Below, piece by piece: positions 5,733-55,067 of a DNA stretch of 64,000 nt (within the stretch, counting starts at the first letter, position 1; each line of letters opens with the position of its first letter). This DNA comes from Pseudovirgaria hyperparasitica (taxonomy: Eukaryota): NCBI GenBank assembly GCA_010093815.1, contig ML996575.1. The stretch is one strand, 5' to 3'. The notes beneath the pieces are model-generated. The model was not told where the DNA came from and made no database searches. It saw nothing but the letters and a program-made list of their open reading frames with translations. The translations under genes were made by a program, and so were the position numbers.

Positions 5733-6290
5733 ATTCCCTGCCTCGAATCTTCTTTTGCAGTCTCTGCAGCTGAAGTCGTTTTCGTACGATTCCAAATGTG
5801 ATTTTTTCAGCTCTATGATTGATAGATACGCCTACAATTTGTACAACCTCAACAACAGGAGTGAACCGGGGTGGTTATTACTCTGCTTTTGGCCCCATAT
5901 CTAGTTTCGGTCCTCCCGCGTTGTCGTAAAGCTACCAGCAGATAAACGGAAGCCGCCAATTCGCTTTAGTTACCCAGACAGCTATAAAGCAAACATGTCA
6001 TCCAACAGTTCAACAAATCCGCTCGAACCGCTAGCCAACGGGACGCGAGAATCAACTTTCTGACAAACAGACTTGTGGGTCATGGCCAAGAATCACCATT
6101 GGTAAATTCTGTAATCATAAAAAAGAGACCAACCCTGTTCTCAAGCTTGAGAGCACCTGGGGCCAGAACATTATATTACTTTCTAGACTCGCCGCCTTTC
6201 AAAGCTAGCAACCTCACTCACCTTTGTTTAGGATGCTTCTCATGCTAGAAATATCCTCTGACATGGTTTGAAAACGACACTGACCTAACA

Positions 6291-8424: not shown

Positions 8425-9876
8425 TCGGCATGCATTCAAAAACAGTCACCACATCGCATGGAAACACTATAGAAGCACATTTGAACGTCCGCTCATTCGA
8501 ATGTTCAATCATGGAAGGAAGACGCGCTGATCTGCATTTTGCAGACGTGAACAGCAGTGTAAAGTCCGCCGAACTCGAATGGAGGCTGCTTGGTGTCACT
8601 GCTGCTGTTCTCATATGTGCCTTCCTCGGGCGCAAACATTGACTCGGCAGTGAGTATATCTTGTAAGAGCGATTGATATATCGGGGGTACTGGGCAAGAT
8701 CATAGATGAAGCATTCACAGGTGTCTGTCTGTGGCCGGGGTCGAGGCTCTTTCAACATTTCCGACTGATGATCAAATCGATTGATGATAAGTAGAAACAA
8801 GGAGGCGAGCTCTAGTACATGCTTCACAGAAGGTTATGGGCCCTTCAAGCCGTAATATCTCGTGAAAATGGCGAACTCGATGAAAATTATTCGTGCTTCT
8901 TTCGATCCATTCATGATATGCTCCTGGAATTCTCCTTTTACGAAAATGGCTATGTAGTTTCTTGTTCGTAGGATTCCACAAACACCACACAAACGCGTCG
9001 ATCATATACGCTGGTACTTAGTCATGGTGAGTGAACGTTCATGTCCTTCGGCCAAGGCCTTTCTGTCGACCTGGTAAGGTGAGGGTCGAAGGTATTACTT
9101 TTGGTATGTAAGGAGCTTAGGTATGGAGAAAGAAGGATTACATGCGAATGAAGGTTGAATGTTATTTCGTTCGCAGATGGATGTCTATATCGAGATAATC
9201 GCCTTGCTTCACTATTCTGACAGTCTTCCATTATTTCTAATATCAGAATATCCAGCCGATAAACGACAGGTGGCCTCATTCCGATGATTTCAATGGGTCC
9301 TGGGGCCAATTCTGACACATCCTCGCTGCAGAATGTCGTTATGCAAATAGCATGGCGTACTCAATATGATGTCAGAGGAATCGAGTTCTCGCTCTCGCTT
9401 CTTCGGACGAGTTGCACCTGTCTGTAACACAATTTGATACACGAAAAGCTACATAACGTTATGGTCTGAGAGACCATCAACAGCATGCTTCGTTATACTC
9501 GACGATGATAGGCTTCGACGACCCCAGGAGCAGAAAACAAGCAATATGTATACACGTCAAAGCCCCGTGCTAGCCGTACATCTCCGCCGTCGGAGACTTT
9601 GTTTCTGGTTAGTGACATTTCTGCTTATCAAGCTCCGCATGATGAGAACATTATAAATCTACTTCTGCACACCCAGGTACTTACCTAGGTACGTAGCATC
9701 CGGATGAAACACTACCCCGCCCCCGCATCAAAACATCAGAAGGCATAGCCGCCGATTCACGACGCCATTGTACAACCCTCTTTCATACAAGACCAATAGT
9801 TCCTCCTATATACCAAAAAAGTAAATACACACACTATATTACAACGATCCAGACATACCCTTTAACACCGCCAACA

Positions 9877-10947
9877 ATGTCTACCAATCCAACAGAACAC
9901 TCCGTCTCCTATGCGCCCGACAAACACATCTCCTACCTCGACTCGGGCCCCCGGGACGGCCCCTTAATCATCTTTTCCCACGGCTGGCCGGGCTGCGCCG
10001 AAGTATGGTCGATGCAAGCCAGCCACTTCAACCGTCTCGGTTTGCGTACCATCAGCGTCGACCAGCCAGGCTACGGCAACTCGAGCACTGGCGGCGCCCT
10101 TTCAGACTACCGCCTCGAAACCCTCGTATCAGCGCTGCACGCCGTCTATAAGGCCTCAGGCGCCGTGGCACCCGCACTGTGGATCGGCCACGACTGGGGC
10201 GCGACCATCGTGTGGAGCGTCGCGGCGCATCACCCGGACATCTGCGCCGGCGTCGCGTGTGTCGCCGTCCCGTACATGACGCTGGAGCTTGGGCTGCAGG
10301 GCTTGCGCGAGACGATTAATCGTGACCTGTACCCCGCGGATGAGCATCCCAATGGCCCGTGGGACTACCAGGCGTACTACGAGACCAACTTCGAGGACGC
10401 GACGCGGGGTTACGAGGCTGATGTCGCGGCGTTTACGAAGGCCGTGCATGTCAAGGGTAATCCGGAGGCTTTGGGGAAACCAGCGCCCACGGCGGGAGTT
10501 TCGAAGGAAGGGGGTCGGTTTGGCCCGGGGGCAATCCTGCCGGCTGAGGATGCGATTCCGATGAAAATGACTGTGTTTGATGGGAAGGAGTGGATATGGG
10601 ATTTGTTGAGGGCTAAGATGCTGAAGACAGGCTATCGGTGGGGAAATGCGTATTATATGAATCATGGCGTGAATCGGGCGTATACGCTGGAGAAGAGCGT
10701 TAATGGTGGCGTATTGGAGATGCCGACGTTGTTTATCAACGCCAAGTGGGATTCGGTGTGTAGTTCTGATGCGAGCCCGAAGTTACCGGTCAAGATGAGG
10801 GAGTTCTGTAAGGGTTTGACGGAGGTTGATGTTGATGCGGGGCATCATGCGCAGTTGGAAAGATATGAGGACGTGAACAGGGCGATTGAGGGATGGCTTA
10901 GGGGCAAGCTGTCTGGGTGGTATGATGGAACGGGAGTTAAGCTGTAG
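9877..10947 (+). CDS. Soluble epoxide hydrolase (alpha/beta hydrolase fold), intronless
   Basis: HGWP oxyanion motif, DQPGYGNS, GHDWGA nucleophile motif, cap Tyr in WDYQAYY, C-terminal DAGHHAQLE His motif. Confidence 0.9.
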   Translation: MSTNPTEHSVSYAPDKHISYLDSGPRDGPLIIFSHGWPGCAEVWSMQASHFNRLGLRTISVDQPGYGNSSTGGALSDYRLETLVSALHAVYKASGAVAPALWIGHDWGATIVWSVAAHHPDICAGVACVAVPYMTLELGLQGLRETINRDLYPADEHPNGPWDYQAYYETNFEDATRGYEADVAAFTKAVHVKGNPEALGKPAPTAGVSKEGGRFGPGAILPAEDAIPMKMTVFDGKEWIWDLLRAKMLKTGYRWGNAYYMNHGVNRAYTLEKSVNGGVLEMPTLFINAKWDSVCSSDASPKLPVKMREFCKGLTEVDVDAGHHAQLERYEDVNRAIEGWLRGKLSGWYDGTGVKL

Positions 10948-12188: not shown

Positions 12189-13738
12189 TGTGGTATGTGT
12201 GGGGAGTTGATACCGGTCAAATTGAGATTGAGGGAGCTATGAGAGACAGAATGAAAGCAAGAGATGTCGAATGCTGACGGAGACTAGCATTTTAGAGACA
12301 TGGAAATCGGGCCTGAAGACTGGCTCAGGGTAAAGCACAGTCCTGATCAACGGCCAAGTCCCTCAAGTTTGAGTGACGTCCGTCACGCCACTGAAGTTAG
12401 CAAACCTAAAGCTCAGGGTGCCGCAGACTGTTTCGTAGCTCTGTTTATTGAGGTCTAGGGTCCTGTTCGGGAAGTAGCCAGTGGGTTCTTGGTTCTTGTG
12501 TATTCTGAGTATGCAGGCATCGTTCAATCATGTAAGAAATCAGCGGTGCAGTACTGACTCCCTTCTGGAGCCCCAATGACATGCAGTAACCTCTATACAG
12601 AGTGAAATGTAGGATGTAAGGCTGGAAGACGTTGACACTGCCGAATCGGGATGTTGGAATTTGTTTGCGCCACCCCAGACTCGCCTGTGACAAGATGGAG
12701 AAGTGGACCTCCTGCATGACTAGCGGTCGCTCCCGCTGTCAGATTCAGCCATATGACGCTTATCTCTATCTCTGCAGGAAATACGTTTTGTGTATAGAGG
12801 CGATCGGTTTGATACCAAATTCTACAATAGAGGCGCTTCCTGACTTGAGACGACCGACTTGAGGATTCCGCAGCGTCACACGGCACAGTGCGGCACAGTT
12901 TGATCGTCGGACAGGTATACAAGGATCTCCTGGGTGACGACCTCCTCTATCTCTTGTCGGTCCACTGTACATAGTAAAAGGACCGTACATTGCATCATCC
13001 TTCCACAGGGCCACATGGGAGCCCCTCCAGCAAGGAACAAGTCTGGAGACCTGGAGATAAACTCTAGAGATAAGACCCAGAGATATGACCTTAGTATATG
13101 GACAGTCCGGATCATCCCTCTTCACCTGGAGTAATCCATTGACAGTGACTGATCAAGATCATTGTATCTCGGTGGAACTTCTGGTGCTATCCAGAACACC
13201 TGATTACAACTGATAAGCCCTCGTAGAATACTTGACTAAAGATTTATTAGGATCACCGGATCGGTATAGAAGGAATGAGTCGAGTGTCCGCATCACTAAT
13301 TATACTTAAGTAGAGAAGACAGCCTCTAAGAGCTCGGGAAGTAGAAAAGTCCGTCTAACTGGTACTTTCCAAATTACCTCAATTACTTGGCAGCTAATGC
13401 AGGGGCTCCAAGCCGGCAACATCTGCCAAGAGTTCTGTTTAATTCGACCCACCCCAAGCTTGGGATTCTGTAGGAAGGTCCGAATGCCCGAGGTGCCGAA
13501 GTCACCGTCCTCCGTCGCAACGCTAACAATACCACTATGGCTTGTTGTCTATCGTGAGTATTACTTCTTCTGGAATGTTGATGACGCGTAGCACATTCAA
13601 CACGTCTGGCCTTCATGAAGCTGTCTCCCCCGCAGGAGGTATAAATATGGCCTTGGCTGGTTCGACAGGATGTTTCAACAGCTTAAGACGACTTGTCTAC
13701 AACGTCAACAGTTCCATCACTACTTTGCAAACTTCAGT

Positions 13739-14983
13739 ATGACTGTCCCATCTCTCAATATCCTCATCTCAGGCGGTGGAATAGCTGGTCATTGCCTTGC
13801 GTACTGGCTCTCCCGCACACGTCTCCAGACGTCCATCACCATTGTAGAACGAGCTCCTGTCCCCAGAATCACCGGCCAAGCCGTGGACATACATCAGCCG
13901 TCCATCGAGATCGTCAAGAAAATGGGCCTGCTCAACTCTGTCCGTGAATACAACACCACCGAAGAAGGCACCACTATGCTCAAACCCAACGGCAAGCCCT
14001 TCCTCCACCTGCGTCAGGCTGACGGCTTCTCCTTCACCAACGAATACGAGATCCTGCGAGCCGACCTCGCTGAACTGTTCAACGACGCTTCCAGCAAGTT
14101 CAGAAACGTGCAATGCAAATATGGCGACAGCGTGACATCCCTCACGCAGACGTCTTCTTCCGTCCATGTGACCTTTGCCAGCGGCACATCAGACACGTAC
14201 GACCTCGTCGTCGCGGCCGACGGGAGCGCATCACGGCTTCGCGACATGATTCTAGACCCATCCGTCACCAAAGGCTGCTACAACTTCATCGGCCAGTACA
14301 ACGCCTTTTTCAGCATTCCCTCGCGCCCCTCCGACGACAAAATGTGGCATTTCATGAACCTCCCACAAGGCCGCGCACTTATGCTCCGCCCGCATCGCAA
14401 CCCGGACACTATGGGCGCCTACGTATGCGTCACAACGCCTGGGCATGGCCACAAAGACCAGCGGATGGAAGACGCAATTGCCACAGGACACGAAGCCGTG
14501 AGAGGGCTACTACATGAGTATTTTGCCGGCGCGGGATGGCAGAGCGGCAGGATTTTGGACGGCATGGATACGGCGTCAGACTTCTACATCTCGCGGTCCG
14601 CGACTGTTAAACTACCCAAATGGACCAATAACCGTGCGTGTGTGGTGGGAGATGCGGCATGGGCGACATTCGGTATTGGCACCACGCTCGCCATTGTCGG
14701 GGCGTATCATCTCGCGGGCGAACTGGGCAAGATCAAAGCGAGCAGTGAGATCCCCGGGGCACTGGAGATGTACGAGCAGAGCTTGCGGCCATTGTATAAG
14801 GCTATGGGCGAGTTGCCTCCAGGGTATCCGCAGATCCTGTTTCCGCAAACGATGTTGGGGTTGCGGGTGAGGGACTCGGCGCTATGGGCTGTGAGCAAGG
14901 GTCGAGGTTTGTTTAAGCTATTTGGAGGTGATAAGGACGATAACAAGTTCAAGTTACCGGAGTATGATTGGGTTGATGTCTGA
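13739..14983 (+). CDS. FAD-dependent monooxygenase (FAD_binding_3 / aromatic hydroxylase type), intronless
   Basis: ILISGGGIAG Rossmann motif, EILRADL, DLVVAADG and VVGDAA motifs. Likely start is M at 13739. Confidence 0.92.
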   Translation: MTVPSLNILISGGGIAGHCLAYWLSRTRLQTSITIVERAPVPRITGQAVDIHQPSIEIVKKMGLLNSVREYNTTEEGTTMLKPNGKPFLHLRQADGFSFTNEYEILRADLAELFNDASSKFRNVQCKYGDSVTSLTQTSSSVHVTFASGTSDTYDLVVAADGSASRLRDMILDPSVTKGCYNFIGQYNAFFSIPSRPSDDKMWHFMNLPQGRALMLRPHRNPDTMGAYVCVTTPGHGHKDQRMEDAIATGHEAVRGLLHEYFAGAGWQSGRILDGMDTASDFYISRSATVKLPKWTNNRACVVGDAAWATFGIGTTLAIVGAYHLAGELGKIKASSEIPGALEMYEQSLRPLYKAMGELPPGYPQILFPQTMLGLRVRDSALWAVSKGRGLFKLFGGDKDDNKFKLPEYDWVDV

Positions 14984-16656: not shown

Positions 16657-18384
16657 ATGGTTGAAGCCAAGGAAACCGCCACCGAAGTTCGAGCTGTGTC
16701 CGACACTGGCTCCGTAAGTCATGATGCAAATGCTGTTCATTGGCTGGTCCGATTGACGTGTTCTAGCTCCATAAGAATGCCGTAGAGATCAAGGTCATCA
16801 CCGGAACAGAGGCCTTGGCCGAGGCAAGAATCAAAGAACCTCCTCAGCTACTCGGTTTTCATGCCTTTGTCCTATATCTCTGTGCCTTCGTCGGTTTCTT
16901 CTGTTCCACCTGCAACGGCTTCGATGGTTCCATGTTCAATTCTCTCCTCACTAACAAGCAGTTCAAAGAGTACTATGGTGTCGAAAACACAGGAGCATGG
17001 ACTGGCATTGTGACTTCAATGTATCAGATTGGCGGCGTTGTGGCCTTGCCTTTTATTGGACCTGCCTGCGATAGGTTTGGACGACGATATGGGATGATGA
17101 TTGGAGGCCTCATTGCCTCTCTTGGAGTGATCATCCAATCAACAACCAAGCCTAACCACAACCCTGTAGGACAGTTCATGGGAGGACGTTTTCTGCTTGG
17201 GTTTGCCGTCCCCATCATCACCACTGCTGGCCCTCTCCATGTTGTCGAAACAGCCCATCCGTCCCATCGCGGGGTTGTGACTGGTTTGTATAACACTTTC
17301 TGGTTCGTCGGGTCGATCCTTGCTGCTGGGTCTACCCGCGGGTCGTCGAATCTGAGCGGCAACAAAACCTGGATGGTTCCCGTATGGCTCCAAATCCTGT
17401 TCCCAGGCCTCATCCTTGCACTCGCGTGGTTCCTACCCGAATCTCCCAGATGGCTGTATACTCGTGGGCGAAAAGAAGACGCTAAGAAGATGCTAACATA
17501 CTATCACGGAAATAAGAACCCTGACTCAATCTGGGTTAGTCTTCAACTTCGCGAGTACGACCAATATCTCGAAATGGACGGCGCTGATAAGCGATGGTGG
17601 GACTACCGGATCCTGTTCAAAACTCGTGCTTCTCGCTACCGCATGCTAAGTAACATCTGCATTGCTGTATTTGGTCAATGGGCCGGCAATGGCGCAATTT
17701 CATATTTCATAAGGTACGTTGAACAGTTCCTCAACTCACTACAGACATTAACCCAAACTCAGCGGCGTTCTGGACACAGCAGGGATTACGGGCGAAATTC
17801 AGCAGATGAACATCAACCTAGGTCTTGCATGCATGCAATTCGCATTCGCTGTCTTTGGCGCCACAATGGTCGACAAACTAGGCCGGCGCCCCATGCTCCT
17901 GATTGCAAACATCGGGGCCTCCTTTATCTGGATCGCCGCTATCGTGTCCGTGTCCATCAACGACAGGACCGGCACGGCCTCCTCAAGCAAAGCCTTTCTG
18001 GCCTTCATATTCATGTTCAACGCTATCTTCGCATTTGGCATGACGCCGCTACAGGCCCTATACCCCGTTGAGGTGCTCTCGTTCGAAATGCGTGCTAAGG
18101 GCATGGCGTTCAGTAATATGTCGCTGACAGTCGCGATGCTAATCAACCAGTTTGCGTACCCGATCGCGCTGGAGCAGGTCAAGTGGAAGCTGTACATCCT
18201 GTTTGCGGTGTGGTGTCCCGTGCAGGCGCTTGTGATATGGCTGTTCATCCCAGAGACCAAGAACCGCACACTAGAAGAGCTAGACGATATCTTCAACTCG
18301 CCGAATCCGCGCAATGCCAGTCTTGTCAAGACGAAGGTTGCGCTGGATGAGCGCAAGAACGTGGTCGAGGTCGAGAAGATGTAG
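16657..18384 (+). CDS. crt1: MFS sugar porter of the lactose/cellodextrin permease clade (Crt1/LacpB-like); exons 16657-16713, 16767-17713, 17763-18384
   Basis: KEPP...FFCSTCNGFDGS, GIVTSMYQIGGVVALPF, DRFGRR, PESPRWL, MDGADKRWWDYR, PETKNRTLEE. Introns restore the frame. Confidence 0.9.
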
Positions 18385-21567: not shown

Positions 21568-22809
21568 CTATCCCATGTACTCCTCACCAGCAACCCACAC
21601 GTTTCTCACGTTGTTTATAATCTTGATGTCCGCTATGGGGTCGCCCTCGACTAAGAGCAGATCTGCCCTCAACCCAGTTTTAACCTGTCCCCTATCAGTG
21701 TACCCAAAGATTCTGGCTGGCTCCTTGGTAGCCATTCTCAGAACATCTGCATTCGACAGGCCGACTTCAGTCAACAATTCCATCTCCTCATGCAGACTAC
21801 TCCCAAATGGAAACCAAAGCTCTGTGAGGGCCCCCGGTGTTAAGGTATGCACATCCGTGCCCACGAGAAGATCCGCACCAGCGTCATACAATTTCCGCAC
21901 ATTCGACTGAATCATTGTCCAGTTGGCATCCGGATAATAGCCAGCCTGCCAGCCTTGATAGTGCACACGCAACGTCGGGACGTTGACTACACCCATACCA
22001 AGAAGTTGCTGTACTTGGTCATCGCTGATGTTTGCGTCCGTAATAGTGTGATGGATCAAGTCTGTCCCACTTCCAAGTGCGCGTACCCAGCTATCGGATT
22101 CCGTTGCATGCGTCATTACTACGCGTCCGTACTTGTGGCCCTCGGCTACGATTGCGGTTTGCATGTCTTGACTGAAGCCACCATTCTGACTGCGTAGTTT
22201 GAAGAGTTCTGACCCAGCAGCTATATTGTTGGACATGAAGGACGGGATCTGGGCGGTTGAGTTGATGAAATTGACAGATGGAACGCCGCCAGGTGTTGCG
22301 AGGTTACTGCTTCCAGGAGCAACAGCGGGGAGACCAGCGGTGATAAAGCTGGTGAGGCCTGGTAGGTTCCTAAGCTGCGCACAAAGCGTGAGATTTTGAC
22401 AGGATGCGCCGATCGTAGTAGTCACACCAGCAGCCGTAAGATTTTTCATTTCTTCGAGGGAGCCCGGGTGTGCGTGTGACTCGAAGAAGCCGGGGAGAAG
22501 GACATGCCCGGTGCCGTTGATATGGGTATCAGGCGTGACGCCGAGATTGGTGCCGATCAAGCCGATACTCGAACCAGAAATGAGCACAGTAGTCGGAGCG
22601 GATAGACCATGACCATTGAAATACCGAACGTTGTCTAGGGCAGTCACTTGGGGCGAGGACGTGGTGAGGTTTGTTGCTGGATCACTGCGTTTGCTGTATC
22701 TCGCGCGGTGAGCGGCTATGCCGACATCTGAGCCCGCAGCCGGATCATCGCCGCAAGCCAAGATAAGGCGGATGCTTGCTAGAAGAGTAAGACCTCTGTT
22801 GAGCTGCAT
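21568..22809 (-). CDS. Metal-dependent amidohydrolase (Amidohydro_1), probably secreted, intronless
   Basis: LLPGFFESHAH (HxH), VMTHA, IHH, LLVGTD, GLRADLLLVEGDP. N-terminus MQLNRGLTLLASIRLILAC is signal-like and followed by a KR site. Confidence 0.88.
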   Translation of the reverse strand: MQLNRGLTLLASIRLILACGDDPAAGSDVGIAAHRARYSKRSDPATNLTTSSPQVTALDNVRYFNGHGLSAPTTVLISGSSIGLIGTNLGVTPDTHINGTGHVLLPGFFESHAHPGSLEEMKNLTAAGVTTTIGASCQNLTLCAQLRNLPGLTSFITAGLPAVAPGSSNLATPGGVPSVNFINSTAQIPSFMSNNIAAGSELFKLRSQNGGFSQDMQTAIVAEGHKYGRVVMTHATESDSWVRALGSGTDLIHHTITDANISDDQVQQLLGMGVVNVPTLRVHYQGWQAGYYPDANWTMIQSNVRKLYDAGADLLVGTDVHTLTPGALTELWFPFGSSLHEEMELLTEVGLSNADVLRMATKEPARIFGYTDRGQVKTGLRADLLLVEGDPIADIKIINNVRNVWVAGEEYMG

Positions 22810-23479
22810 TGAAATCGGTCGAATCGAGCCTCCGAGAATCCTGAGAAAAGACAATAGAAGGTGAAAATTGGTCAAATGGGTCAGATTTGAGAGGAAACTA
22901 CCTGACGGTTTGCTTGAGATTAAGCTGGCTTATCCAATATGTTAAGAATGGTGTCTTGGTTCGATTGCTTGCTCACGGTGGTCATCATCTTTATACTACT
23001 CGTCGCTATGCATCTTTGCCCGGCAACACTAGCCACCGCTCATCGAACAACGTACGTCAATCATGGCTGCGCAGACTTGGCAATCGAAACGAGAGCCTCG
23101 AGTCCCGAACGTCCGTCTCGCAACATACCATGCGAAGCTGACCAAGGATATCCGAGACCCTCTGGAAATGTGCAAGAAGAACATGAGAAGAGCAAAGAGG
23201 ACAGACGGGAGAAGGTCCGATTTGGCACTAATTACTTCCGGCTAGAATCTCTCAAGGCTAACCAAGCTGGAACACCCAAACGCCACCAACACCCGTCAAA
23301 GGCTGAGTCCATCCCCTACCCAAATCCTCTTCTCATCGCGGAGATGCAATCTCGGGTCCGAAACGGGGCTTCCTTCCGGCTTCAGTGATGAATCAAGTCA
23401 AGATCGTACCGTGCACTGTAGAAGCTTAGGTCCTATACGGTGGTAACCATCGACGTCATATACATACAATTGCACAGTC

Positions 23480-29010: not shown

Positions 29011-30849
29011 CTATGGAGGTATTGGGTTGTCCTCAGAGTTTACACCAGCCCGCCACCTGTATTTCGCCGCCACATGATTGCTTGGTGGTCCACATTGCCC
29101 GCGTGTCTGGTAAAAGTTCTCTCTGTAAGTTCCACCGGGCACTGCATATCCATCCCAGAACAGTTCCCTACGTTTCAGCTCTGGCAACACCAAGTCGATG
29201 ATGTCTTTGAAAGTCTGTGGAAACACTGCATAGGCCTGAGGTAGTCAGTAAACAATCGACGTACAGAGAGACATATCCCACGAACCAGATTGAACCCATC
29301 AACCCCAGCTTCTGCAACCCATGTCTCCAGACTATCCACCACCTGTTGCGGACTCCCAACAATCACTGGACCGTTACCACCAATACTGACATGCTCTGCC
29401 ACGGTATGTTTAGTCCACTTCTTGTCGCCGTCGGAGAATCGAGCGTATGCTTCTACTGTTGATCTGTATGCACGTGAGCTGAAGCTGACTCCACCACTAT
29501 ATCATTATTGCACTGCGCCTACCGTACTGCGTTGCTCTCAACCTGTCTAAGTTCCTCCTCGTCTCCGTAATCGCCAAGGTTTATACCAGTCCATCCGCAA
29601 AAAAGAGCTAGAGCACCCTCAAGCGATGCATATGTTCGATACTCTGCCAACTTTGCTTTGGCCTCTTCCTCTGTCTCGCCGACGATGATCGTCACCAGTG
29701 CCAGGAACTTGATGCTATCCTCACTGCGGCCGTACTTCTCTTTGGCCATCGTCCGGATTTCAGTGATATTCGAGGCCACCACATTCGGAGCAAACGGCGA
29801 GACGAAGATGGCCTCAGCATGCTGAGCTGCGAATTCCTTTCCAGCTTTGGATGTTCCAGCCTAGTCAAGATTAGAATATATGCATGATGCAGTCACTCTA
29901 TCTGAATAGTACCTGTAGGATCAATGGCGTTCGCTGAGGACTCGGTTGGCAGATGTGAGGCCCAGGTACAGTGAAATACTTCCCCTTGTGTTTAATTTCC
30001 CGTACAAGCTCCGGTGAGGTGTAGATACCAGTCTTGCGGTTCAGTTGAACTGCGTCATCTCTCCAAGAGGACTCGAGTAATTTGTAGATGACCTGTATGA
30101 ACTCTTCAGCCTGGGCATATCTCTCATCGTGAGCTGGCTGCGATGAGTTGAGCATGTTGCGAGCGGCCGAGTCTAGGTAGCTCGTGACTATATTCCAACC
30201 CAGGCGACCTTTTGAGAGATGGTCAATCGTTGATAGTCGTCGAGCAAGATGATATGGCTGCTCGTAAGTAGTTGAAACCGTTACCCCGAAACCTATACTC
30301 TTTGTTGCTGCTGCCATGGCGGAAACGACACTTAATGGCTCGTTGACCGGCCATTGTGCCCCTGATCTTTTAGCAGCATCTAAGTTCCCATTATAGACAT
30401 CATAGCCACCTGGTCGTAGTCAGTCATAGTCATACTTCGGCATCAATCAGACGTACCAAGCACATCAGCCACAAATATGCCGTGGAAAGAACCAGCTTCG
30501 AGTAGCTTTGCCAAACTGACCCAATGATCTACATCGTTGAATTTCCAAGATTCGTCTTCTGGGTGTCTCCAAAGACCCGGACTTTGATGTCCACTGCCTA
30601 CGATCAAAATTTAGTCTTTCGTCCAGCCTCCGGATTCGCTCCGGCTAATTACTGCCACTATTACATGTACTCACACATTTCTACAAACGCATTGAGAATC
30701 AAAGGTTTCTTCGCAGTACTATTGGCCGGCTTGACAGTATTGGCTTCAGCATCTTGCTTCGTCTTCTTGGTTCCATTTGAAACTGGTACGCTGCCACCAA
30801 CCGTATCCTCTACAGCAGCGGCTCGTTTCCTCGACCGAGTCCCTTCCAT
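29011..30849 (-). CDS. FMNH2-dependent luciferase-like monooxygenase (DszA/NtaA/SnaA family), multi-exon
   Basis: LILNAFVEMC|SGHQSPGLWRHPED, MAAATKSIGFGVT, YEQPYHLARRLSTIDHLSKGRLGWNIVTSYLDSAARN, PSPQRTPLILQ, GTYREN. Confidence 0.93.
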
Positions 30850-32571: not shown

Positions 32572-34502
32572 ATGACAGTGATTACATGTACCGCATCGGT
32601 CAGCAATGAACGCGGCGACATCGAAACACCGACACCAGTCACCAACCGCGTCAATGGTATCAAGGACATCAATGGCCACAAAGCAGCCTCGATATCAGCT
32701 TCTCTTGTGGTTGCAGAGCCCGGTAATGACGAGGCAGTTGCATCCTACCCGAGGAGCAACTTACGACTAGACGAAGACCATCACATTGACGATATTCGCC
32801 CCCTGCGCGCTGTGGTTATTGGTGCTGGTCTATCAGGTATCTTAGCTGGTATTCTACTGCCTGCCAAAGTGCCGAAGCTCGAGCTCACTATCATCGAGAA
32901 GAATGATGATGTCGTATGTGTATGCTCTGTCAATGACTACATAAGCTGACTTAAGTTACGAAGGGAGGAACATGGCTTGAAAACATCTACCCCGGCGTAC
33001 GATGTGATATTCCCGCTCATGTCTACCAAGCAACATTCTCACCGAACACCCAATGGTCGCAACAATTTGCTGAGGGACACGAGATTTTGGCGTACTGGAA
33101 GGAGCAAGCGCGTAAATATGATGTTTATCGCAAAGTGCAGTTCAGAAGGCAGGTCGTAGACCTCGCTTGGGACGACAGATCGTCACATTGGATAGTGAAG
33201 GCAAGAGATACTGTAACGGGAACTATACATGAACAGACAGCGGACTTTGTGCTACCCGCGTTGGGTCGATTCAATACATGGAAGCTACCGGAATATCCTG
33301 GTATCCAAGATTACAAGGGACATCTACGACATACCTCCAACTGGGATCCCGAATTTGATCCGAAAGGCAAACGCGTCGCAGTCATCGGCAACGGAGCTAG
33401 CGGTATACAGGTAGTGCCCAATATGCAGTTGGTAGCAGCGCACGTCGATCACTATGCACGCAACAAGACGTGGATAGCAGGATCTTGGGCAGGTGATGCA
33501 AGGACTTTTGAGCCACAATGGTTTTCTGAACAGCAGCTTAAAGAATTCGAGGATCCGGAGAAGTATCTCGAGTTCCGCAAGGCCTTGGAGGATAAGTACT
33601 GGCGCCGCTTCCCTGCTACTTTCCGAGGATCCAAGGAGAACAAAGGGTTACGAGAGGCTTTCATTGAGATCATGAAAGGAAGAGTTACCAAGAAGCCCGA
33701 GCTGATAGAGAACCTCATCCCTGATTTCAACCCAAATTGCCGACGCCTGACTCCCGGCCCAGGATATCTAGAAGCCCTGACCGAGCCAAACGTAGATTTT
33801 ATCCAGACACCTATCAAGAGGTTTACGGAGACTGGTATCGAGACGGCAGATGGCATTGAAAGGCCTGTGGATGCGATTCTTTGTGCAACAGGCGCGCACG
33901 TTGACTTTCTACCGCGATTTCCAATCACAGCACATGGACGCGATCTAAGAGATCTATGGCGGCCTGGAGGTGAACATGGTTGGCCGTACACATATATGGG
34001 TCTCGCTACTCCCTCTTTCCCCAATCTCCTCTTCATACATGGGCCTCACGGAGCCGGTCCAGCTGGTACAGTACCTCACAGTGTTGAGGTACAAGTCGTA
34101 TACTATGCAAAGCTACTGAGAAAAGTTTCTTCGCAAGGCATCAAGACAATCACACCATCCAAAAAGGCGACAGATGACTTTGTGGAATATGCAGACGCGT
34201 TCTTTCCAAAAACTGTCTTGACAGACAATTGCAGCTCTTGGGCAAATGGTGGTAAAGCTGGGCAAAGAATCCACGGCCACTGGCCGGGAAGCGCAGCTCA
34301 TGCTACAATTGTTCGCAGGGAACCTCGATGGGAGGACTGGGAATATGAATATATCTCGAACTCTGGTAATCGTTTTGCCTATTTCGGCAATGGCTTTACT
34401 AAACGCGAGACGGACGCGGAATATGACATGACACCGTATCTTAAGCTACCAGCCGATGTAGATCTACGGGACCTGCATGAGCAGTGGCATGAGCTACCAT
34501 AG
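32572..34502 (+). CDS. Baeyer-Villiger/FMO-type flavin monooxygenase; exons 32572-32913 and 32964-34502
   Basis: VVIGAGLSG, GGTWLENIYPGVRCDIPAH, BVMO-like YKGHLRHTSNWD, VAVIGNGASG, CRRLTPGPGYL, ILCATG. Confidence 0.93.
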
Positions 34503-35059: not shown

Positions 35060-36522
35060 ATGTCTACCATCCCGACGAGCTCTCCGTTTCTCAGGGAACA
35101 CCCAGGTGAGTGGTTTTTTAAGACGGTCTCTATTGAACACACCGTCTAATGTTTGCTACAGTCAAATGGTATCGGTCGAGTTTCTACAATGCCACCATCC
35201 TCGGTCTCTGTAATTTCGCTGCCCCTGGAATCTGGGGGGCCATGAACTCCCTTGGGGCAGGAGGGGCGCAACGTCCATATCTTGTCAACACGGCCAATGC
35301 CCTTACCTTCTGTCTGATGGTTGTGTCTTGCTACTTCTCCTCCGCCATCGTGCATTACATTGGCATCAAAAACTCGCTTGTCGTCGGTACTCTTGGCTAT
35401 GCACCTTACGCTGCAGGTCTGTATGTCAACAACCGCTACGGAAATGAGTGGCTTGTTCTCCTCGGCGCTGCTTTGTGTGGCCTCTCTGCGGGAATATTCT
35501 GGATGTCTGAAGCAGCTATCGCCATCGCGTATCCAGAGCCGTATAATCGTGGTAAATTACTTGGATACTGGCTGTCGTTCAGGATTGGAGGCCAAATCAT
35601 CGGCGGCGCAGTCAACCTTGGCTTGAACGCCGATAACAACCAAGCTGGGAAAGTATCATACACGGTCTTCCTTGTGTTCATTGCTCTGCAATGTAGCGGT
35701 CCACTCGTAGCCTTGCTGCTCAACAAGCCAAATAGGGTTCAGCGCTCAGATGGCAAACGTGTGAATCTTACTATTACGGACGGGCCATGGACGGAGATCC
35801 GCCGTACCACACACTTATTCTTTTCTCCGGGCTTCCTTCTCATTGTTCTGTTTATTGGCCAAGCTGTCTACGCAGAAGCCGTCTTCTTCACATATCTCAG
35901 CCTATGGTTCACGGTTCGCGCGCGCGCACTTGGCAGTCTTGTTTCTGCACTCGCAGCTATGGTCGCAGGCAACATTCTGGGAGCATTTCTAGACCAAAAG
36001 CGCATCAACCTGCGCATGCGGTCCAGGGCGTCGTTCATTACAGTCGCAACACTCCAGGGCGCATGGTGGATCTGGGCGACAATCTTAGTGACCCGTTTCC
36101 GGCACACTCGCCCAACCTACGATTGGGTCTCGCCCGGCTTCGGCTCTGCTTTTGGCGTCTTCGTTTTGCTCACGGCTGGATTCCAGATGAATTACCTACT
36201 GCTATACTTCATTGTTGGGCAGATGGCAAGGGATGAGCAGGAGGTCGTTCGGTACGCGGCACTGCTTAGAGGCACGGAGAGTGCGTGGCAGGCGGTTAGT
36301 TATGGTCTGAATGCGATTGTAGTATTCGCAGAGGTGGGTGGGGTGTATGTCAACTTTGGTCTTTGGGCGGTCAGTCTTGTCCCGTGTTGGTTTGTGTTGA
36401 GGAAGTTTGGAAGCACAGCACAGGATCTAGAAAACTATAGGGACGGACACAGTGATGCTACAGATGGGTCAGTGACACCGGTGGAACCCCACAAGGAGAC
36501 TGTCAAGTATGATGGTAGATAG
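35060..36522 (+). CDS. UNC-93-like (DUF895) MFS transporter; exons 35060-35105 and 35162-36522
   Basis: WYRSSFYNATILGLCNFAAPGIWGAMNSLGAGG, AIAIAYPE, ~12 hydrophobic segments, RGTESAWQAVSYG. Confidence 0.9.
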
Positions 36523-47575: not shown

Positions 47576-48251
47576 CACGTCAATGACTTATTATGGGAAG
47601 AAAGTAGCGAACTTTGAACGACGCCTGTCTGTTAAGAAATATATATACTTATTGGATGCCTAGTCAGGCTTATCTTAGAAAGCAAGGATGACTGTTGAGA
47701 GTTAAGTCGATCACCCGGGTATGGCGGGTGCTGGAATCCGCATTTACGTAAAGCCTCTCTAAAACTAACCCGTAGGGGGTAACCCTGAGCGCCGAATGTC
47801 TCCTACGGAACATATCCGTATGTCCTTTTAGGACCATTCGAACATGAATGAGTATTTACCTGGACGATTCCAGGACGTGTAGTGGTGGTAGGCGTGATTT
47901 CTGACTGTAATTCTACTGATCACGGATCGCTGTCCGATGCGTCGAACGCAATTCAGGCATGCCGATAAGGGTGGGTCTATGGTTCCATCCCTCGATGCAG
48001 TCAGAATCGAGCGAGATCACTGTTATATATCAATGTACGAGTATTAATCAAGTACACTGCCATGTGAGTGATGTGTGAGATGGGATGGAGCCGCGGAATT
48101 GCCTGAGGTGTCAAGGGGGTGAATCGGGACGCCAAGGTTAGACAAGACCCCGCCCGATCCACTATCCATGTCTCCATGCGCTCGTTCTTTAAGGAGCAAA
48201 TCCCTCTCTATCGAAACAGAAACCCTCTAATCCAGACCGACCTCAACAACC

Positions 48252-50332
48252 ATGGAGGCCAACAATGGCCTTGCACCTCCTCCTCTTCATCTCCCAGATG
48301 GTGCCTGGACCCAGGGCCCCGTATCCCTCGCCCGTGGCCGTTCTGCAAAGGACCCCAGCGCTCAGACAGCTACCTACACCGTTCATTCTCTAGAAGAGTT
48401 CGAAACAGCTCTACGCGCATACCTTGATGACCCACCTCCCGATCCCGAACATGCGGAGGGCCATTTTCATTTTTGGCTCGGTGCGAGCTTCCTCGTGCAC
48501 CCCCCGGTGCTGTCACCCCAGGAGCGAGTAGCTCTCGAAGCTCATGCTCGTCGAGTTGAGCAGCAAGCAGCACAGCAACTCCAGGAGGAGGACCAGCAAC
48601 AAGACCCAACAAACCAATCGGCATATCCTCCTACAAGCCTGGACGCGCACTATGCTGCTGCTGCTCAGGCACATCGTGCCGCACAGAGAGCAATATACGC
48701 ACAGAATGCAAAGCTTGGCCCTCGACCCGATGGACGTACTATTGTAGCAAGATCAGAGGCTTGTGGTCTGCCATCGACCAAAATCTCCATGAGCATCTTA
48801 GAGGCCCTTCAACCTACGGCCGATCCCAAAGACCGTATGCGGAAGCAAAGAGCAATAGCGAAGGCCTGTATTGAAGCCATTCAGCGGGTAGATGGCTATC
48901 GGTACAGTTTCCACAACAATTGGAACAGCAGAGAGGACGACGCTTTCAGGTTTAGTTATTACTGTAACGATTCCCTGTTGAACAAAGATCGGGCCGCCAA
49001 TGGCAAAGGTCAGAAAGTTGGTCAGTAGATCCACCTTACATGGTGAGACTATGCTAACGAATAAGCCTTAACAGGTAAGAGGGCCACAAAGCCCGTGTAT
49101 GACTGCCGAGGTGTGCTTGCTGTCAAATTCTCGTCCGTGAAGCAGAGCTTGGAAGTCCACTATAAGCACATTCCGAAGCATAAGACGTATGAAGAGCGTG
49201 CCCCGCCACCCCGACGAGATTCCAAAAGAAGGAAGCGATTGGAGGCAGACGATCCAGACGCGTAAGCAGAAAGAACATTTGGGTTGTCTGGCACAGCTGA
49301 CCTCATGAGCAGTGTACCTCAAAAGAAGCCGCGTCCGCCGCCTAAGGAGAAAGATCTCAGCGCCCTGCCGAAGAAGAAGAAGGACAAGGCAAATAAAGAA
49401 CAGCCTGCAGACTCCATTGAAAGCTCTCTTAGGGCACAAAGTCTACAATCCTTGCTTGAGCTCATACGAGTTGACGGGCCCACCGGCAGTGGAACCAATG
49501 GTGACACTGCTCCAGCTGTTGATGCTGGGATACAAATTTTCCAGGCCACCCAAGCGAGTCCTTCCGGTACTCCAGATACTTCGCACCCTGCCAAGAGGCG
49601 ACCGAGACTTGCCTGTGATCAGTGTAGGTCGAAGCGAACAGCATGTGATCATGCTCGACCAACTTGCAAGTCTTGCAACACTCGAAGTCTTCAATGTGTC
49701 TACAACGATATGGCAGACAAAGCCTCTCGACAGTCTCTACCTGCAACTGGACAGTTGGCTCAGGCACCCAGCAACAACATATCAACTCCAAACACAACAT
49801 CAGCACCACCCGTCGTGCAGAAAGCTGCTGGCCCAACGCCATCGGATGACTTGATTTTGCAGAAGATGAAAGCTGACTTGGAAGCTGCTCAATTGCGTAT
49901 TGCTCAGTTGGAAGCCGAAAAGAACACGAGTCCAACCGTGTCGACCCGCACCGTGACGCCGAATACTATGAATAATATCACTCCACAGCCCCGGCACCGC
50001 GAAGTACTTCATCAGCAATATCAGCAGATGCAGCAGAGTGAGTGGATATAGATTTCAAGTATTTTGTGAGGCTAATGATCACAGATAATATGCACCCTCG
50101 CCACGACTATCCTCGCCAGCCGGTGCAGCCACAGGGGCAAGCGCAACAAGCTCCAGCCCAACCTTCACCGCAGCAACATCAACATCAAACGCACCACATG
50201 CAGGCCTCACAGCAGACGCAGTGGCCCGCACCTACATGGAACTCATACCAGTATCCGCAGACGTCGCTGCAGGCTCCGAGACAGGATCAGTGGAACAGTC
50301 GAACTAATACTGGCAACCTGTTCCGCCAATAG
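48252..50332 (+). CDS. Transcription factor with an internal Zn(II)2Cys6 cluster, coiled coil and Q-rich tail; exons 48252-49020, 49075-49261, 49313-50036, 50085-50332
   Basis: ACDQCRSKRTACDHARPTCKSCNTRSLQC; LQKMKADLEAAQLRIAQLEAE. Splice sites keep the frame. Confidence 0.82.
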
Positions 50333-51034: not shown

Positions 51035-52966
51035 ATGACATCCGTCTTCGGCGTCTCGGCTGGCGACTTCATAGCTACAGGCATCTTGATCAAGAACCTC
51101 ATCCAAGCCTTGCGCGTGTCCGCCGCCTCCGAGCACCTCGAGCTCTGTTCAGAGCTCGACGGACTCAAGCGCGCGCTCCACGAGATCGAACATCTGAAAT
51201 GTAGTCCTGAGCAGGAGCGAGATGTGAATGCTGTGAAGGTCGCAGCGCTCCGCTGCCGGCATCCTTTGGAGGACTTCGAGAAGAAGCTCGTCAAGTATTG
51301 GAGCATTGGGACACAGCCGACGAGTACGACTGGACGGATAGTCAGGATTGGTCGGAAGGTGCAGTGGAGTGTGAGTATGCAGGACGATGTGGATAGGCTT
51401 AGGGCAGTGATTGCGGCGCATGTTGGGAGCTTGAATATGCGTCTTCTGACGCTGGGACTGTGAGTTGCTTGTGCTAGTACTATTTTGCTACCGTGTATTG
51501 ATTTGTGAAGGAATGCTATACTGTTGGAATCTAGCACTTTGGCTGATGCGTCCACGTCCTCGGATGCGCTCCAGCGGGAGATGCCTGCGATCCGCTCGGA
51601 GATTATCAACATGAGTGGAATGGTGTCAAAGAGCACCACAATGCTGTCGTCACTCAAAGACCTTGTAACTCTGTAACGGCCGTCGAGTCTGCCTGCTCAG
51701 GACTGACTGCTAACATTTGAGCAGGAATCTTGTGCCGCAACTCTCCCACTTGACTGATTTTGCACTCAAGATATGGACGACCAATTTGGATATCCTGGCA
51801 AAACTTTCGGATGTATCTAATCAGTTGGAGATAGATCTAAAGCACACTCATTTCCAGGCACAGTTCATATTCGAAGATGCATCGGGGAATATACTGCCTT
51901 TGCCGCCCGAGCTCGGATGGAGGGTACGTATGCCTGACTCCAGCCTCCAGACTCCAATTTTATGAACGAGACATGAATGAATGACCCTTACCATTTACCA
52001 CAGGGCATGAACGCCATCGTAAAGGACCGCTACCTCACCGGCCCAGGCCATCGCAAAATCGCCGCTGGCGAGTACGAGCTATTCCACACACGAGACCGCA
52101 ACCAGCTCATCACAAGCGATACATACCCTCTCCTGCCGCCCGGATCGCGCATAACGATGTCTCTGATCATCGGCCGCTACGAAGACTGGCAGTCGCGGAA
52201 TTGCTCGCGGCCGGGCTGTGCCTCGCGTAGCTTTAGCCGGACGAGTGCTGGTGGATGGACATGGTGAGCGAGCTCCACGTCCCTACATGCCGTACCGTTC
52301 TGTCAGTCCGCAGTGTTCTAAGTTTCCGCAAACAGCGATGCGTGTGCGGTCTGGTTCGACAAATCGCACACCATGATCCCCCGACCGTTCCGCGAGCTGC
52401 ACCTCGACGATCTCGACGACGTGTCCGCAAGCCTCCTCCACGCGCATCATGTTCCGGGGGGAGGCACAAAGCGCCGTGCGGCCGGGCTTGCCGAACGTCG
52501 TCTCACGGTGCGACAGATCTTCGATATGATCACCACACTGCGGGACGACCGGAAGTGGTTTAAGAATATCTCGGTTATCGAAAGTGATCTGTCGGATATC
52601 GAGGCGTATATCAGCTCGGCGACCGTGGCCGAGCATGGACGGCCGAAGAAAGTGCCGAGAGGAGCGCGGAGCTCGAAAGTGCGGGCGCCAAAAGGGGCGA
52701 TTGAGCGAGACCGGGAACTCGTTAGCAAGGCTTATGCCGTTGTGAGCGATCTTATAGGTTATGATGTGCTTGATGAACAGATAGAGGATTATGACACGAC
52801 GTTTGCTAATTTCGGCTTCGATTCTCTCCTGGCTGTCCAGCTGCCGTTGTCACTGGAAGAAGCGCTGGGGTATCGAGTCACGATAACACCATATGAGCTG
52901 ATGAGCCAGGAGATGACGATGGCAAAATTCAAGACGCTAATCCTGAGTGCCAATCCGAAGGCCTGA
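51035..52966 (+). CDS. 558-aa multidomain protein: HeLo/SesA-like N-terminal helical domain + ubiquitin-like domain + C4 zinc ribbon + acyl-carrier (PP-binding) domain; exons 51035-51459, 51511-51672, 51725-51923, 52004-52263, 52336-52966
   Basis: FGVSAGDFIA...LKRAL...KVQW...LRAVIAAHVGSLNMRL; FIFEDASGNILPLP...GPGHRKIAAGEYELF...LLPPGSRITMSLII; CSRPGC...WTCDAC; FANFGFDSLLAVQL. Spliced length 1677 nt, with no internal stop. Confidence 0.78.
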
Positions 52967-53192
52967 TGAAGTGGCTAGGGTTGGGCTTATACATAATACA
53001 TAGGAGGTCAGGTACACACTCTAGAGTTCTGTCAGTTTTGGGAACGTAACGCATCGACACCGGGCTCGATCGAAGATGTACCGAATGCTTCTTTCTATAA
53101 AGCGACAATTGAACGCCTACCTAATGCCCCCCTTATGCCCCCCTTATGCCCCCCTTTTCCCCCTTTTCCCCCTCTCTCCCCACCTACCTCCC

Positions 53193-55067
53193 TCACTCAT
53201 CCAAAACCCCCATAACCCCCTCCGAATCCCGCACCAACACCGCCGTCCGACTCAGACTCGCCCTGACCGGCTTCCGCGCACAGAAAATCTCCGTCAACTC
53301 CTCCAAAGTTCGCCTCCGCGTCTCCACAAAGAAGAAATAAATAAACACAAACTCCAGACTATCCCAGCCGATGAACAGGATATAGTACTTCCACCCGGCC
53401 CCCGTAAACGCAATCTCCGTCACAAAAGTATTGTAGAACCCGGCCAGATTGATCACGAAATTGTTGAACCCCATCCCCTTCGCCCTGCTCTCGTAGCGCA
53501 GACATTCCACCGGGTAGAGTGCTTGCAGTGGTGTGTAGCCGGCCGAGTACACGAATCCGAAGATGAAAATCAGGCCGATGATGGCCTTTGCCTGCGCAGG
53601 GCGCTGCACGGCAATCGTCCCGTCGTCAAGCGTAATGTACGCGCCCGTCACGCCGTCAGTCCGCAGATTCGTCGCGTTCAGCGCCGCAATGGCAGCAAAC
53701 AGCACGACAATCACAAACGTCGACACCAGCAACTGCGGCCGCCGGCCCCAGCGATCCGTAAACACGGCCCCGACCATCGCGCCGCCAAACGACACAATGT
53801 TCTGCATCCCGTTGTACAGCAGCCGGATGTTATTCCCCTCGATCCCGGCGCCGCGCAGCATGGTCGGGTAGAAGTACGAGACCGGCCCGTTGCCAGACCA
53901 CTGCCCGAAGACCGCCATCGCCGCGACAAGCAGCGTCCGGTAGCGCGTCTCCCGCGAGTCGAACAGCTCCCGGTAATCCCACCAGCGCTTGTCCGCGCCC
54001 GTGACGCTGATGTCCTCGACCATCTCCTTGTACTCGAGCTGCACGATCGGACTGTCGCGACAGCCCTCGCCGTGAAACCGCGCCATCACATCCAGCGCCT
54101 CCTCATGCCGATCGTTCGCAATCAGCCAGCGCGGCGTCTCGGGGAGGAACGGACTGCCCAGCAGCACGGCCCCGGAGAAGACAATCTGCAGCCAGATGGG
54201 CAGGCGCCAGGATGCGGTCCCGGGGAGTGTGGAGGTGGCAAAGGGGACAAAGGCGCCTGGGATGCCGCCGAGGAACCAGAATGTGTTGTAGATGCCTGTC
54301 ATTGTGCCGCGGTAGCTCGGGTGGGCCATTTCGGAGACGTAGGCGGGCCCGGCGGAGGCGCAGATGGCGACGCCGAAGCCGAGGGTGAAGCGGCCGAGCA
54401 TGAAGAGGGAGAGGTGGGTGCAGGTTGCCTGGATGGCGGTGCCGAGGACGATGACGGCGGAGCCGATGAACATGCCCCATTTGCGGCCTGCGGGATTGAG
54501 TGTCAGCCAGTGAAGTGGAATGTAATGGAGTTAGGGGGACGGGGGAAGTGGTGTTATATACCTCGAAAATCCGTCGCAGGCCCAGCAGCAAACGACCCAA
54601 GCAGGTTCCCGATCGTGTATATAGCATACACAATCCCCGTCGACGGCGTGCCCTTATCAATCGGGAAATTAAAGTAAACACGGTACTGCTCATACGTGTT
54701 TATCCCAGCCATCAACGAGCCATCATAGCCATTAATGCAGCTATTCAGCGTCGCCAGCAGCAGACACGCGTACAGCTATTCTCTCACACTTTTGCGTTAG
54801 TGACTTCCCCCCAGACGTACTATGGGTTTAAGTGAGAGACATAGTTACCGAAAACATATTCCGCGTCCACGGCGAGGGCTTCTGCCGCTCCGTCGCATCC
54901 GTCAGCGCGACATTATACGAGTGCGCGACCTTTGCATCCTCCTTTTCCCGCCCTTCCTCCTCCTCCTTCTCGCCCCCTGTCGCCGAACCCCTCGAGCGCA
55001 GCGCCCGCCGGCCCCGGTACAGCCCGCTCTTTATCGCAAACTCGCGCTCCTGGGACGACAGCGACAT
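53193..55067 (-). CDS. Second MFS sugar porter of the lactose/cellodextrin permease clade; 3 exons
   Basis: QKPSPWTRNMFS|LYACLLLATLNSCINGYDGS, DFRGRKWGMFIG, PETPRWL, TGADKRWWDYREL, VETRRRTLEEL. Confidence 0.9.

Follow-up and report, generated by a model that had tools for sequence, protein, structure and literature searches.

Acyl carrier domains seldom occur outside synthases, and among fungi they are found in the tails of non-reducing polyketide synthases (NR-PKSs), such as PksA/norsolorinic acid synthase and CTB1, where acyl carrier protein (ACP) domains in the order ACP(-ACP) precede a thioesterase/Claisen cyclase (TE/CLC) domain. The PF17111 domain is known from the heads of fungal NOD-like receptors (NLRs), and one Helo_like_N cluster aligns with the executioner domain of MLKL, according to the available part of a survey of these receptors (PMC9815663), while the accessible text on PigL of Monascus describes an ankyrin protein whose deletion leaves the pigments unchanged (PMC8241920). 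Here, a 64,000-nucleotide stretch of contig ML996575.1 of the dothideomycete Pseudovirgaria hyperparasitica, the whole of which is referred to as the window, was analysed for a gene at 51035-52966 (+), which is spliced from five exons into a 558-amino-acid open reading frame (ORF) and joins a helical head, a ubiquitin-like domain, a zinc ribbon and an acyl carrier domain. The best explanation overall, to which a probability of about 0.5 is given, is that an old carrier derived from an NR-PKS constitutes the specificity module of a modular scaffold and has no role in a local gene cluster; the architecture and the origin of the carrier as described below are regarded as very probably correct.

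The acyl carrier domain was located at 52697-52948 (+), corresponding to residues 470-553, by a PP-binding match, a predicted fold and its kinship with NR-PKS carriers. The PP-binding (PF00550) score was 28.7 bits for exon 5 alone and 26.5 bits when the whole protein was used, both higher than the Pfam cut-off of 20.8, and NCBIfam yielded for this protein just far sub-threshold PKS and EntF rows. The predicted 4'-phosphopantetheine site, Ser512, is encoded by the TCT codon at 52823-52825 (+), which is codon 163 of exon 5 and the very codon named in the initial annotation, and in the model it opens the helix 512-526 within the local motif FGFDS of the GxDS type. Both D511 and S512 are invariant in the ten carrier-bearing sequences aligned (10/10), which are 31-40% identical to the window protein, as well as in 13/13 rows of a further alignment, and G509 and L513 are nearly invariant in the ten-sequence carrier alignment. 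An AlphaFold2 model of the 558-aa protein, built with 55 aligned relatives, reached a mean predicted local distance difference test (pLDDT) value of 81.5; over residues 470-553 the values range from 75 to 92 in the whole-protein and exon-5 models, with the exon-5-only model averaging 58.3 overall and 75-88 over the carrier part. The best Foldseek rows of the exon-5 model were carrier proteins, with E from 0.03 to 0.35 and a template modelling score on the target (TMt) of 0.6-0.76 for free-standing carriers; neither this model nor that of the whole protein gave Foldseek rows at E<=0.001, and the rows were nevertheless nearly uniform in kind per search. In a fold search independent of Foldseek, all 50 rows listed for the exon-5 model were carrier proteins or domains, with Z scores of 7.1-9.7 and a root-mean-square deviation mostly of 2-3 A. 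As Z scores of 7.1-9.7 are frequent among small domains, the argument rests on the uniformity of the rows together with the Pfam score. As modelled, the C-terminal domain folds as a carrier protein, in agreement with the carrier domain with an intact GxDS motif that had been proposed from the DNA, and Ser512 is probably phosphopantetheinylated.

The gene model that places this domain in the same protein as the scaffold is supported by a deposited protein and by assembled contigs. Exon 1 (51035-51459 (+)) begins with the ATG at 51035 and encodes the first three helices of the N-terminal region; exon 2 (51511-51672 (+)) encodes the long helix of the head; exon 3 (51725-51923 (+)) contains the end of the helical region and the start of the ubiquitin-like domain; exon 4 (52004-52263 (+)) contains the remainder of this domain and the first cysteine pair of the zinc ribbon; and exon 5 (52336-52966 (+)) carries the second cysteine pair, a linker, an element with the motif RKWFKN, the carrier domain and the stop codon, TGA at 52964-52966. 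All four introns are of the GT..AG type. The translation of exon 5 is 100% identical over 209 aa to the deposited protein P0001 (558 aa; 'hypothetical protein EJ05DRAFT_501898 [Pseudovirgaria hyperparasitica]'), and the 558-aa form is this deposited protein. Contigs from the public runs X1 and X2, which come from one sample of one study with the library kind not on record, contain the joints 51459>51511, 51672>51725, 51922>52003 and 52262>52335, and one contig per run omits exactly 51460-51510, 51673-51724, 51923-52002 and 52263-52334 and shows no other differences, the last two cuts being ambiguous by one base, with GT..AG in both. Assembled cDNA is the simplest reading of these intron-skipping contigs. 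Since they use the 52263/52336 joint, the junction singled out for checking in the initial annotation, the carrier exon is part of the same transcript as the remainder, and 51511 is the acceptor in use. An alternative acceptor of intron 1 at 51535, giving a 550-aa product, was rejected, as 51511 matches the deposited protein and the contig joints. Moreover, intron 4 divides the codon of C349 (TG|C), the third cysteine of the zinc ribbon, so that exon 5 is required to complete the ribbon, independently of the RNA evidence. The proposal of five GT-AG exons giving 558 aa was thus borne out both by P0001 and by the joints. The intron-skipping contigs (4410 and 4389 nt) were also seen to continue upstream, over 2 kb beyond 50700, and to reach a Zn2Cys6 (Zn_clus) gene at 48231-50051 (+), which lies just upstream and head-to-tail with the scaffold gene; the neighbouring transcripts overlap or are read through in assembly, and a two-gene contig is no proof of a single transcript.

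Different levels of support were observed for the parts of the scaffold. The N-terminal helical region (51035-51827 (+), residues 1 to about 230, spanning introns 1 and 2) forms helices at 9-52, 58-86, 98-155 and 159-229 in the model, and its motif FGxSxGDF is strongly conserved, with D11 present in 51 of 55 relatives. PigL_N (PF17111, formerly Helo_like_N) scored 20.3 bits on the window head against a cut-off of 27.2, whereas relatives within the same alignable family pass it, such as P0152 (41.1 bits), P0090 (36.3) and P0030 (33.7); at E<=1e-3 it was matched by 23 of the 55 aligned relatives, and ULD_2 by 53 of the 55; the combination of such a head with a ubiquitin-like domain, which the initial annotation had called known, is thus common. 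SesA reached just 14.1 bits, in one relative. When the 558-residue model was used for a fold search, residues of about 20-150 gave generic helical bundles (vinculin tail, BAR domains, designed bundles) with Z up to 9.4, which is under the level where helical matches carry much meaning, and MLKL or HeLo was absent among the 50 rows listed. The scaffold profile found nothing at E<=0.01 among solved structures, its zinc-ribbon part giving ribosomal zinc-ribbon proteins at E 0.26-1.3. The HeLo/SesA-like identity that had been proposed for the head is therefore only weakly supported, by the sub-cut-off PF17111 match of the window head and by the relatives that pass PigL_N.

The ubiquitin-like domain, on the other hand, stood as it had been proposed. 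ULD_2 (PF22893) was matched at 51855-52177 (+), residues 240-320 across intron 3; its cut-off of 24.5 is exceeded with 36.3 bits when the whole protein is scored, and exon 4 alone gives 24.1 bits. The model contains a beta-grasp domain at 243-320 with pLDDT 92-97, and Foldseek rows of the whole model were mostly ubiquitin or ubiquitin-like chains, the probability lying mostly at 0.96-1.00 and E between 0.009 and 0.08, with single-domain targets at TMt 0.5-0.6. The four-cysteine zinc ribbon is predicted at 52202-52345 (+) with C329, C334, C349 and C352, as had been read from CSRPGC...WTCDAC; the four cysteines are invariant in 6/6 sequences, and among the 55 relatives C329 is retained in 52, C334 in 50, C349 in 32 (20 gaps) and C352 in 34 (19 gaps), with three short strands (339-341, 347-349 and 355-358) around the cysteine pairs in the model. 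Between ribbon and carrier, a helix-strand-helix element with the RKWFKN motif occupies 52508-52633 (+), residues 407-448, at pLDDT 83-95; in 10 sequences R418 and R421 are invariant, K422, F424, K425 and N426 are conserved at >=90%, and the motif is found also in relatives without a carrier domain. NACHT/NB-ARC had no Pfam match at E<=1 in the window protein, nor at E<=0.001 in the 52 relatives scanned, and no catalytic ketosynthase (KS), acyltransferase (AT), adenylation (A) or condensation (C) domain was detected in the window protein, where ULD_2 and PP-binding were the only Pfam matches at E<=0.001 and a CLU_N match had E 0.12.

The scaffold belongs to a large modular family. When 1.84 billion representatives were searched exhaustively with a profile, 5232 of them were recognised as family members at E<=1e-3, and 270 still passed at E<=1e-30; domains were scanned in 52 long proteins of the best 150 representatives (all of at least 400 aa, plus P0104). 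PP-binding was above the cut-off in three of the 52 and reached 19.8 bits in a fourth; other C-terminal domains were zf-C2H2 (2), Vts1, PAH, RGS, MIT and ankyrin repeats, with weak matches to Cullin and Myb, and many proteins had no recognisable C-terminal domain. Many relatives terminate directly after the zinc ribbon. As a lead only, a language-model look-up pointed to Ascomycota clusters of 'ubiquitin-like domain-containing proteins', one of them with tetratricopeptide repeats (TPRs) in more than half of its members. The carrier proteins are shown to constitute a conserved subfamily of small size within a very large family of the Ascomycota, the C-terminal domains of which vary.

About ten relatives retain the carrier domain, the named ones being distributed over the Dothideomycetes, Leotiomycetes and Lecanoromycetes. 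A search for proteins of near length returned six including the window protein itself, among them a JGI metagenome relative of 515 aa and a Leptodophora relative of 554 aa. Among longer proteins, the exon-5 translation as a query retrieved only the protein itself. The Acrodontium crateriforme relative P0002 (820 aa) combines ULD_2, PP-binding and Thioesterase, and the motifs GWSAG and GDHF are visible in the alignment of its thioesterase (residues 555-819), which may be catalytically intact, the triad being assigned from the alignment. PP-binding reached just 13.4 bits in the Lobaria immixta relative (541 aa), and the DS carrier motif is lost in the Pyrenula relative P0006 (531 aa). Carrier columns were matched by six of the best 150 representatives (P0001, P0007, P0008, P0010, P0013 and P0104), with Leptodontidium sp. 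and Elasticomyces elasticus among the names given, and the partial Gyalolechia protein P0014 retains LGIDSL, with no Pfam match in it or in its 539-aa cluster mate. The tail is missing altogether in the short relatives P0009 and P0017. In P0008 (Elasticomyces) and P0104, a 17-residue insert was seen at the site of intron 4, between GG.. and the second cysteine pair (alignment columns 378-394), and these inserts are probably unspliced introns in the deposited models.

In addition, nine loci (L001-L009, of which L002 and L009 are cut contigs) were found in a scan of metagenome contigs. Our own ACP profile matched L001 twice, L008 once and L002-L007 and L009 not at all. At L001:11107-11994 (+), two tandem carrier domains (LGLDSL and LGIDSL) follow the scaffold, representing a third form beside the single ACP and the ACP-TE. 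A divergent ORF lies beside the carrier-less relatives at L003-L006 (9024-9596 (-)), with a weak scaffold-head match (E about 1e-4, profile positions 15-137), and may represent a neighbouring paralogue of the head domain. The database names of the relatives are automatic only, e.g. 'Carrier domain-containing protein' and 'aryl carrier-like protein'. In the open-access literature no paper was found that describes the architecture of head, ubiquitin-like domain, zinc ribbon and carrier, and the available portion of the fungal NLR survey (PMC9815663) contains none of the terms carrier, PP-binding and phosphopantetheine. The architecture, for which the initial annotation gave no precedent, is rare and without a describing paper among those found, but it is not unique, given its carrier-bearing relatives.

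With a profile of the clade, the top three solved relatives were fungal NR-PKS carriers, namely the PksA ACP (1.3e-11), norsolorinic acid synthase (3.8e-11) and the CTB1 ACP (1.6e-10), followed by the next at 3e-8; the ACP-TE of the Acrodontium relative was closest to the PksA TE (3.4e-23 and 2.6e-18). Its tail matched 18 longer proteins (best 1.7e-43), which comprised 14 PKSs, three nonribosomal peptide synthetases (NRPSs) and one bacterial PKS-like protein, 13 of the 14 PKSs being fungal-named or nameless and one sourced only to a metagenome. These comparisons show a carrier module that, as far as sequence kinship can tell, descends from the ACP(-ACP)-TE tail of a fungal NR-PKS and was taken long ago, and the single ACP, ACP-ACP and ACP-TE would be the three forms expected from fragments of such a tail. 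The exon boundaries at profile positions of about 141/142, 266/267 and 350 recur at other loci, the boundary at about 266/267 being common to the window gene, L001 and L003-L009, and in L001 and L008 the last exon begins just before the second cysteine pair, as in the window gene. The fusion is accordingly old, because it is spread over three classes, because the carrier shares its exon with the second cysteine pair and RKWFKN, and because the boundaries recur elsewhere. A recent domain capture, one of the options of the initial annotation, is contradicted by the retention of the carrier in three Ascomycota classes, the invariant Asp-Ser, the exon shared with half of the ribbon and the conserved intron place. 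In a tree built from the scaffold columns only, from which P0104 and P0024 were dropped as too short, all eight carrier-bearing rows fall inside a 19-row clade (SH-aLRT 96) alongside 11 carrier-less rows, and six of the eight lie within an 8-row clade (support 94). The carrier label takes five changes on this tree, at least two of which are forced by well-supported branches, and the carrier rows are not recovered as one clade; consequently, no claim is made of a single gain or of how many losses occurred.

In the preferred explanation, the Sfp-type phosphopantetheinyl transferase of the cell would convert Ser512 to the holo form, and the carrier domain, as the specificity module of the scaffold family, would take up an acyl thioester or be engaged by carrier-recognising enzymes. 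The scaffold, with its head and ubiquitin-like domain, would then turn the state of the carrier into localisation, assembly or membrane-directed action, and the protein would play no part in a biosynthetic cluster of neighbouring genes. This mechanism of a sensor or cargo carried on a scaffold is put forward tentatively, at somewhat less than even odds. A number of observations weigh against the preferred explanation. The window carrier is the most divergent among those passing Pfam (26.5-28.7 bits, against 32.6-44 in relatives) and has a proline in helix II, and some lichen relatives retain LGxDSL yet fall below the cut-off (P0005 with 13.4 bits, P0104 with 14.5 and P0177 with no match), so that the carrier fold or function may be drifting in lichen relatives. 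In the window protein, the similarity of the head to HeLo-like death domains stays under the threshold, and Monascus PigL, the only studied name-giver of PF17111, offers no functional lead, as no pigment phenotype is described in the accessible text (PMC8241920). The tandem ACPs of L001 and the ACP-TE of P0002 with its apparently intact GWSAG suit biosynthesis as well as sensing, and the synthase search covered just 11 kb downstream of the gene and flanks of 10 kb, with which a more distant synthase is compatible.

The tandem ACPs and the ACP-TE also favour a trans-acting biosynthetic carrier, in which a synthase with its gene at another place would load the ACP with a polyketide or fatty-acyl chain, and the head and ubiquitin-like part would only position the carrier at a membrane or compartment. 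The NR-PKS-like module, the invariant DS site and a window rich in tailoring-type genes (FAD monooxygenase, flavin-containing monooxygenase (FMO), luciferase-like oxygenase, hydrolases, sulfotransferase, transporters and two Zn2Cys6 factors) are in line with such a role. It is nevertheless considered unlikely, as no KS, AT, A or C domain was found at E<=1e-5 in the scanned ORFs of the 64-kb window (52 of the 81 ORFs of at least 130 aa; among those of at least 250 aa only 53025-54677 (+), which is antisense to a major facilitator superfamily (MFS) transporter gene, was omitted), in agreement with the earlier statement that no PKS or NRPS lies there. The 10-kb flanks of L001 (22 of 37 ORFs scanned) and L008 (14 of 27) were likewise free of PKS/NRPS domains, which leaves three of three loci without a local synthase, and our own ACP profile detected no second carrier domain in any six-frame ORF of at least 40 aa in the window. 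Moreover, the adjoining genes differ among the three loci, which argues against a conserved cluster: L001 is flanked by an ankyrin protein, a GDP-mannose dehydratase-like protein, a STE3 receptor and a hydrolase, and neither L001 nor L008 has neighbours in common with the window. The same scaffold also bears non-metabolic domains in relatives.

Those swapped domains have been taken into account for an immune-like sensor with an integrated decoy, in which, by analogy with NLRs, a HeLo-like, membrane-attacking executioner head would be held restrained until a mimic of a cell component at the C-terminus, here the tail of a pigment-type PKS, is modified or bound by a foreign factor and frees it. 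The variable C-terminal domains of the family are compatible with the immune-switch and decoy ideas of the initial annotation, since some relatives resemble NLR sensors in bearing ankyrin or TPR repeats and others bear single domains copied from core proteins (PAH, RGS, MIT, Vts1, zinc fingers), and the place of PF17111 at NLR heads and the alignment of Helo_like_N with MLKL, as given in the available part of the survey (PMC9815663), point the same way. This reading is also judged improbable, as NACHT/NB-ARC is absent at E<=1, the head lies below the PigL_N cut-off, and MLKL and HeLo rows were missing from the fold and profile searches, both of limited power. A wider and still more doubtful form of it, offered as speculation, would see in the family of PigL_N, ULD_2 and zinc ribbon a large group of guard proteins of fungi that lack a nucleotide-binding oligomerization domain (NOD) and are composed of a HeLo-like executioner head and swappable 'integrated' domains derived by copying from the core machinery of the cell. 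The carrier subfamily (ACP, ACP-ACP, ACP-TE) would then signal when the phosphopantetheine/acyl-carrier machinery of pigment-type PKSs is attacked, or what state it is in, with the covalent cofactor as the sensing element. The least favoured reading is a decaying or neutral fusion, the carrier being an inherited passenger without any remaining activity, or providing just a compact helical surface for binding, for which a cofactor is unnecessary. The low scores in the window protein and lichen relatives, the loss of the DS motif in the Pyrenula protein and the missing tails of the short relatives would suit it, whereas an Asp-Ser pair that is invariant in 10/10 sequences at just 31-40% overall identity, a carrier fold predicted at pLDDT 75-92 and a domain transcribed in frame make it very unlikely.

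The direct neighbours of the gene are the Zn2Cys6 factor upstream and, downstream, a convergent MFS sugar transporter at 53193-54530 (-). At 53100-53230, between the 3' end of the gene and the end of the transporter, a short and C-rich motif was observed in tandem, in which ccccttatgcc and cccttttcc are repeated. Farther upstream, a series of tailoring-type genes without a core synthase was observed at 3284-36522, which includes a Zn2Cys6/Fungal_trans factor (3284-5732), a sulfotransferase divided across two ORFs (6249-7193), an alpha/beta hydrolase (9697-10947), a FAD monooxygenase (13619-14983), a sugar transporter (16767-18384), an amidohydrolase (21568-22929), a luciferase-like oxygenase (29898-30419), an FMO-like protein (32955-34502) and an MFS protein (35137-36522).

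A conserved and expressed carrier on a non-enzymatic scaffold suggests that phosphopantetheine or acyl chemistry extends beyond assembly-line synthesis, to uses such as sensing, targeting or switching. At the same time, it brings into view an unstudied family of fungal proteins that is very large, with thousands of members, and whose module-like swapping of C-terminal domains is familiar from immune receptors, and the carrier subfamily provides a chemically tractable entry to the function of this family, with a single serine to mutate and a cofactor to label.

Among the known systems, the tails of the fungal NR-PKSs are the best sequence relatives of the carrier and share its fold (2kr5 among the rows), its DS site and, in L001, the tandem ACPs; in contrast to them, the window protein is without starter unit acyltransferase (SAT), KS, AT and product template (PT) domains and bears the module on a non-enzymatic scaffold, and the identity to PKS tails is just 23-30% in the search with the Acrodontium tail. 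The HeLo-like/Helo_like_N heads of fungal NLRs, the HELLP-type proteins and the four-helix bundle of MLKL resemble it by the weak PF17111 match and by an all-helical N-terminus with a conserved extreme end, whereas the window protein has neither a NOD nor an amyloid motif, its helices are much longer (44-71 residues in the model) and its score is below the cut-off. Carriers outside synthases, such as the internal ACP-like domain of ALDH1L1 and the ACP subunits of respiratory complex I and the Ycf2-FtsHi motor, have the same fold (rows 7rlt with Z 8.7, 7tgh and 8xqx), although no sequence kinship exists beyond the fold and those proteins have known partners; we take them to be precedents for a carrier that works as a swinging arm, or as a subunit with a structural or signalling role. 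Finally, the Ascomycota proteins with PigL_N (PF17111) and ULD_2 (PF22893) agree with the window protein in head, ubiquitin-like domain, zinc ribbon and intron positions, and differ from its rare but conserved carrier architecture in that most of them end after the zinc ribbon or bear other C-terminal domains.

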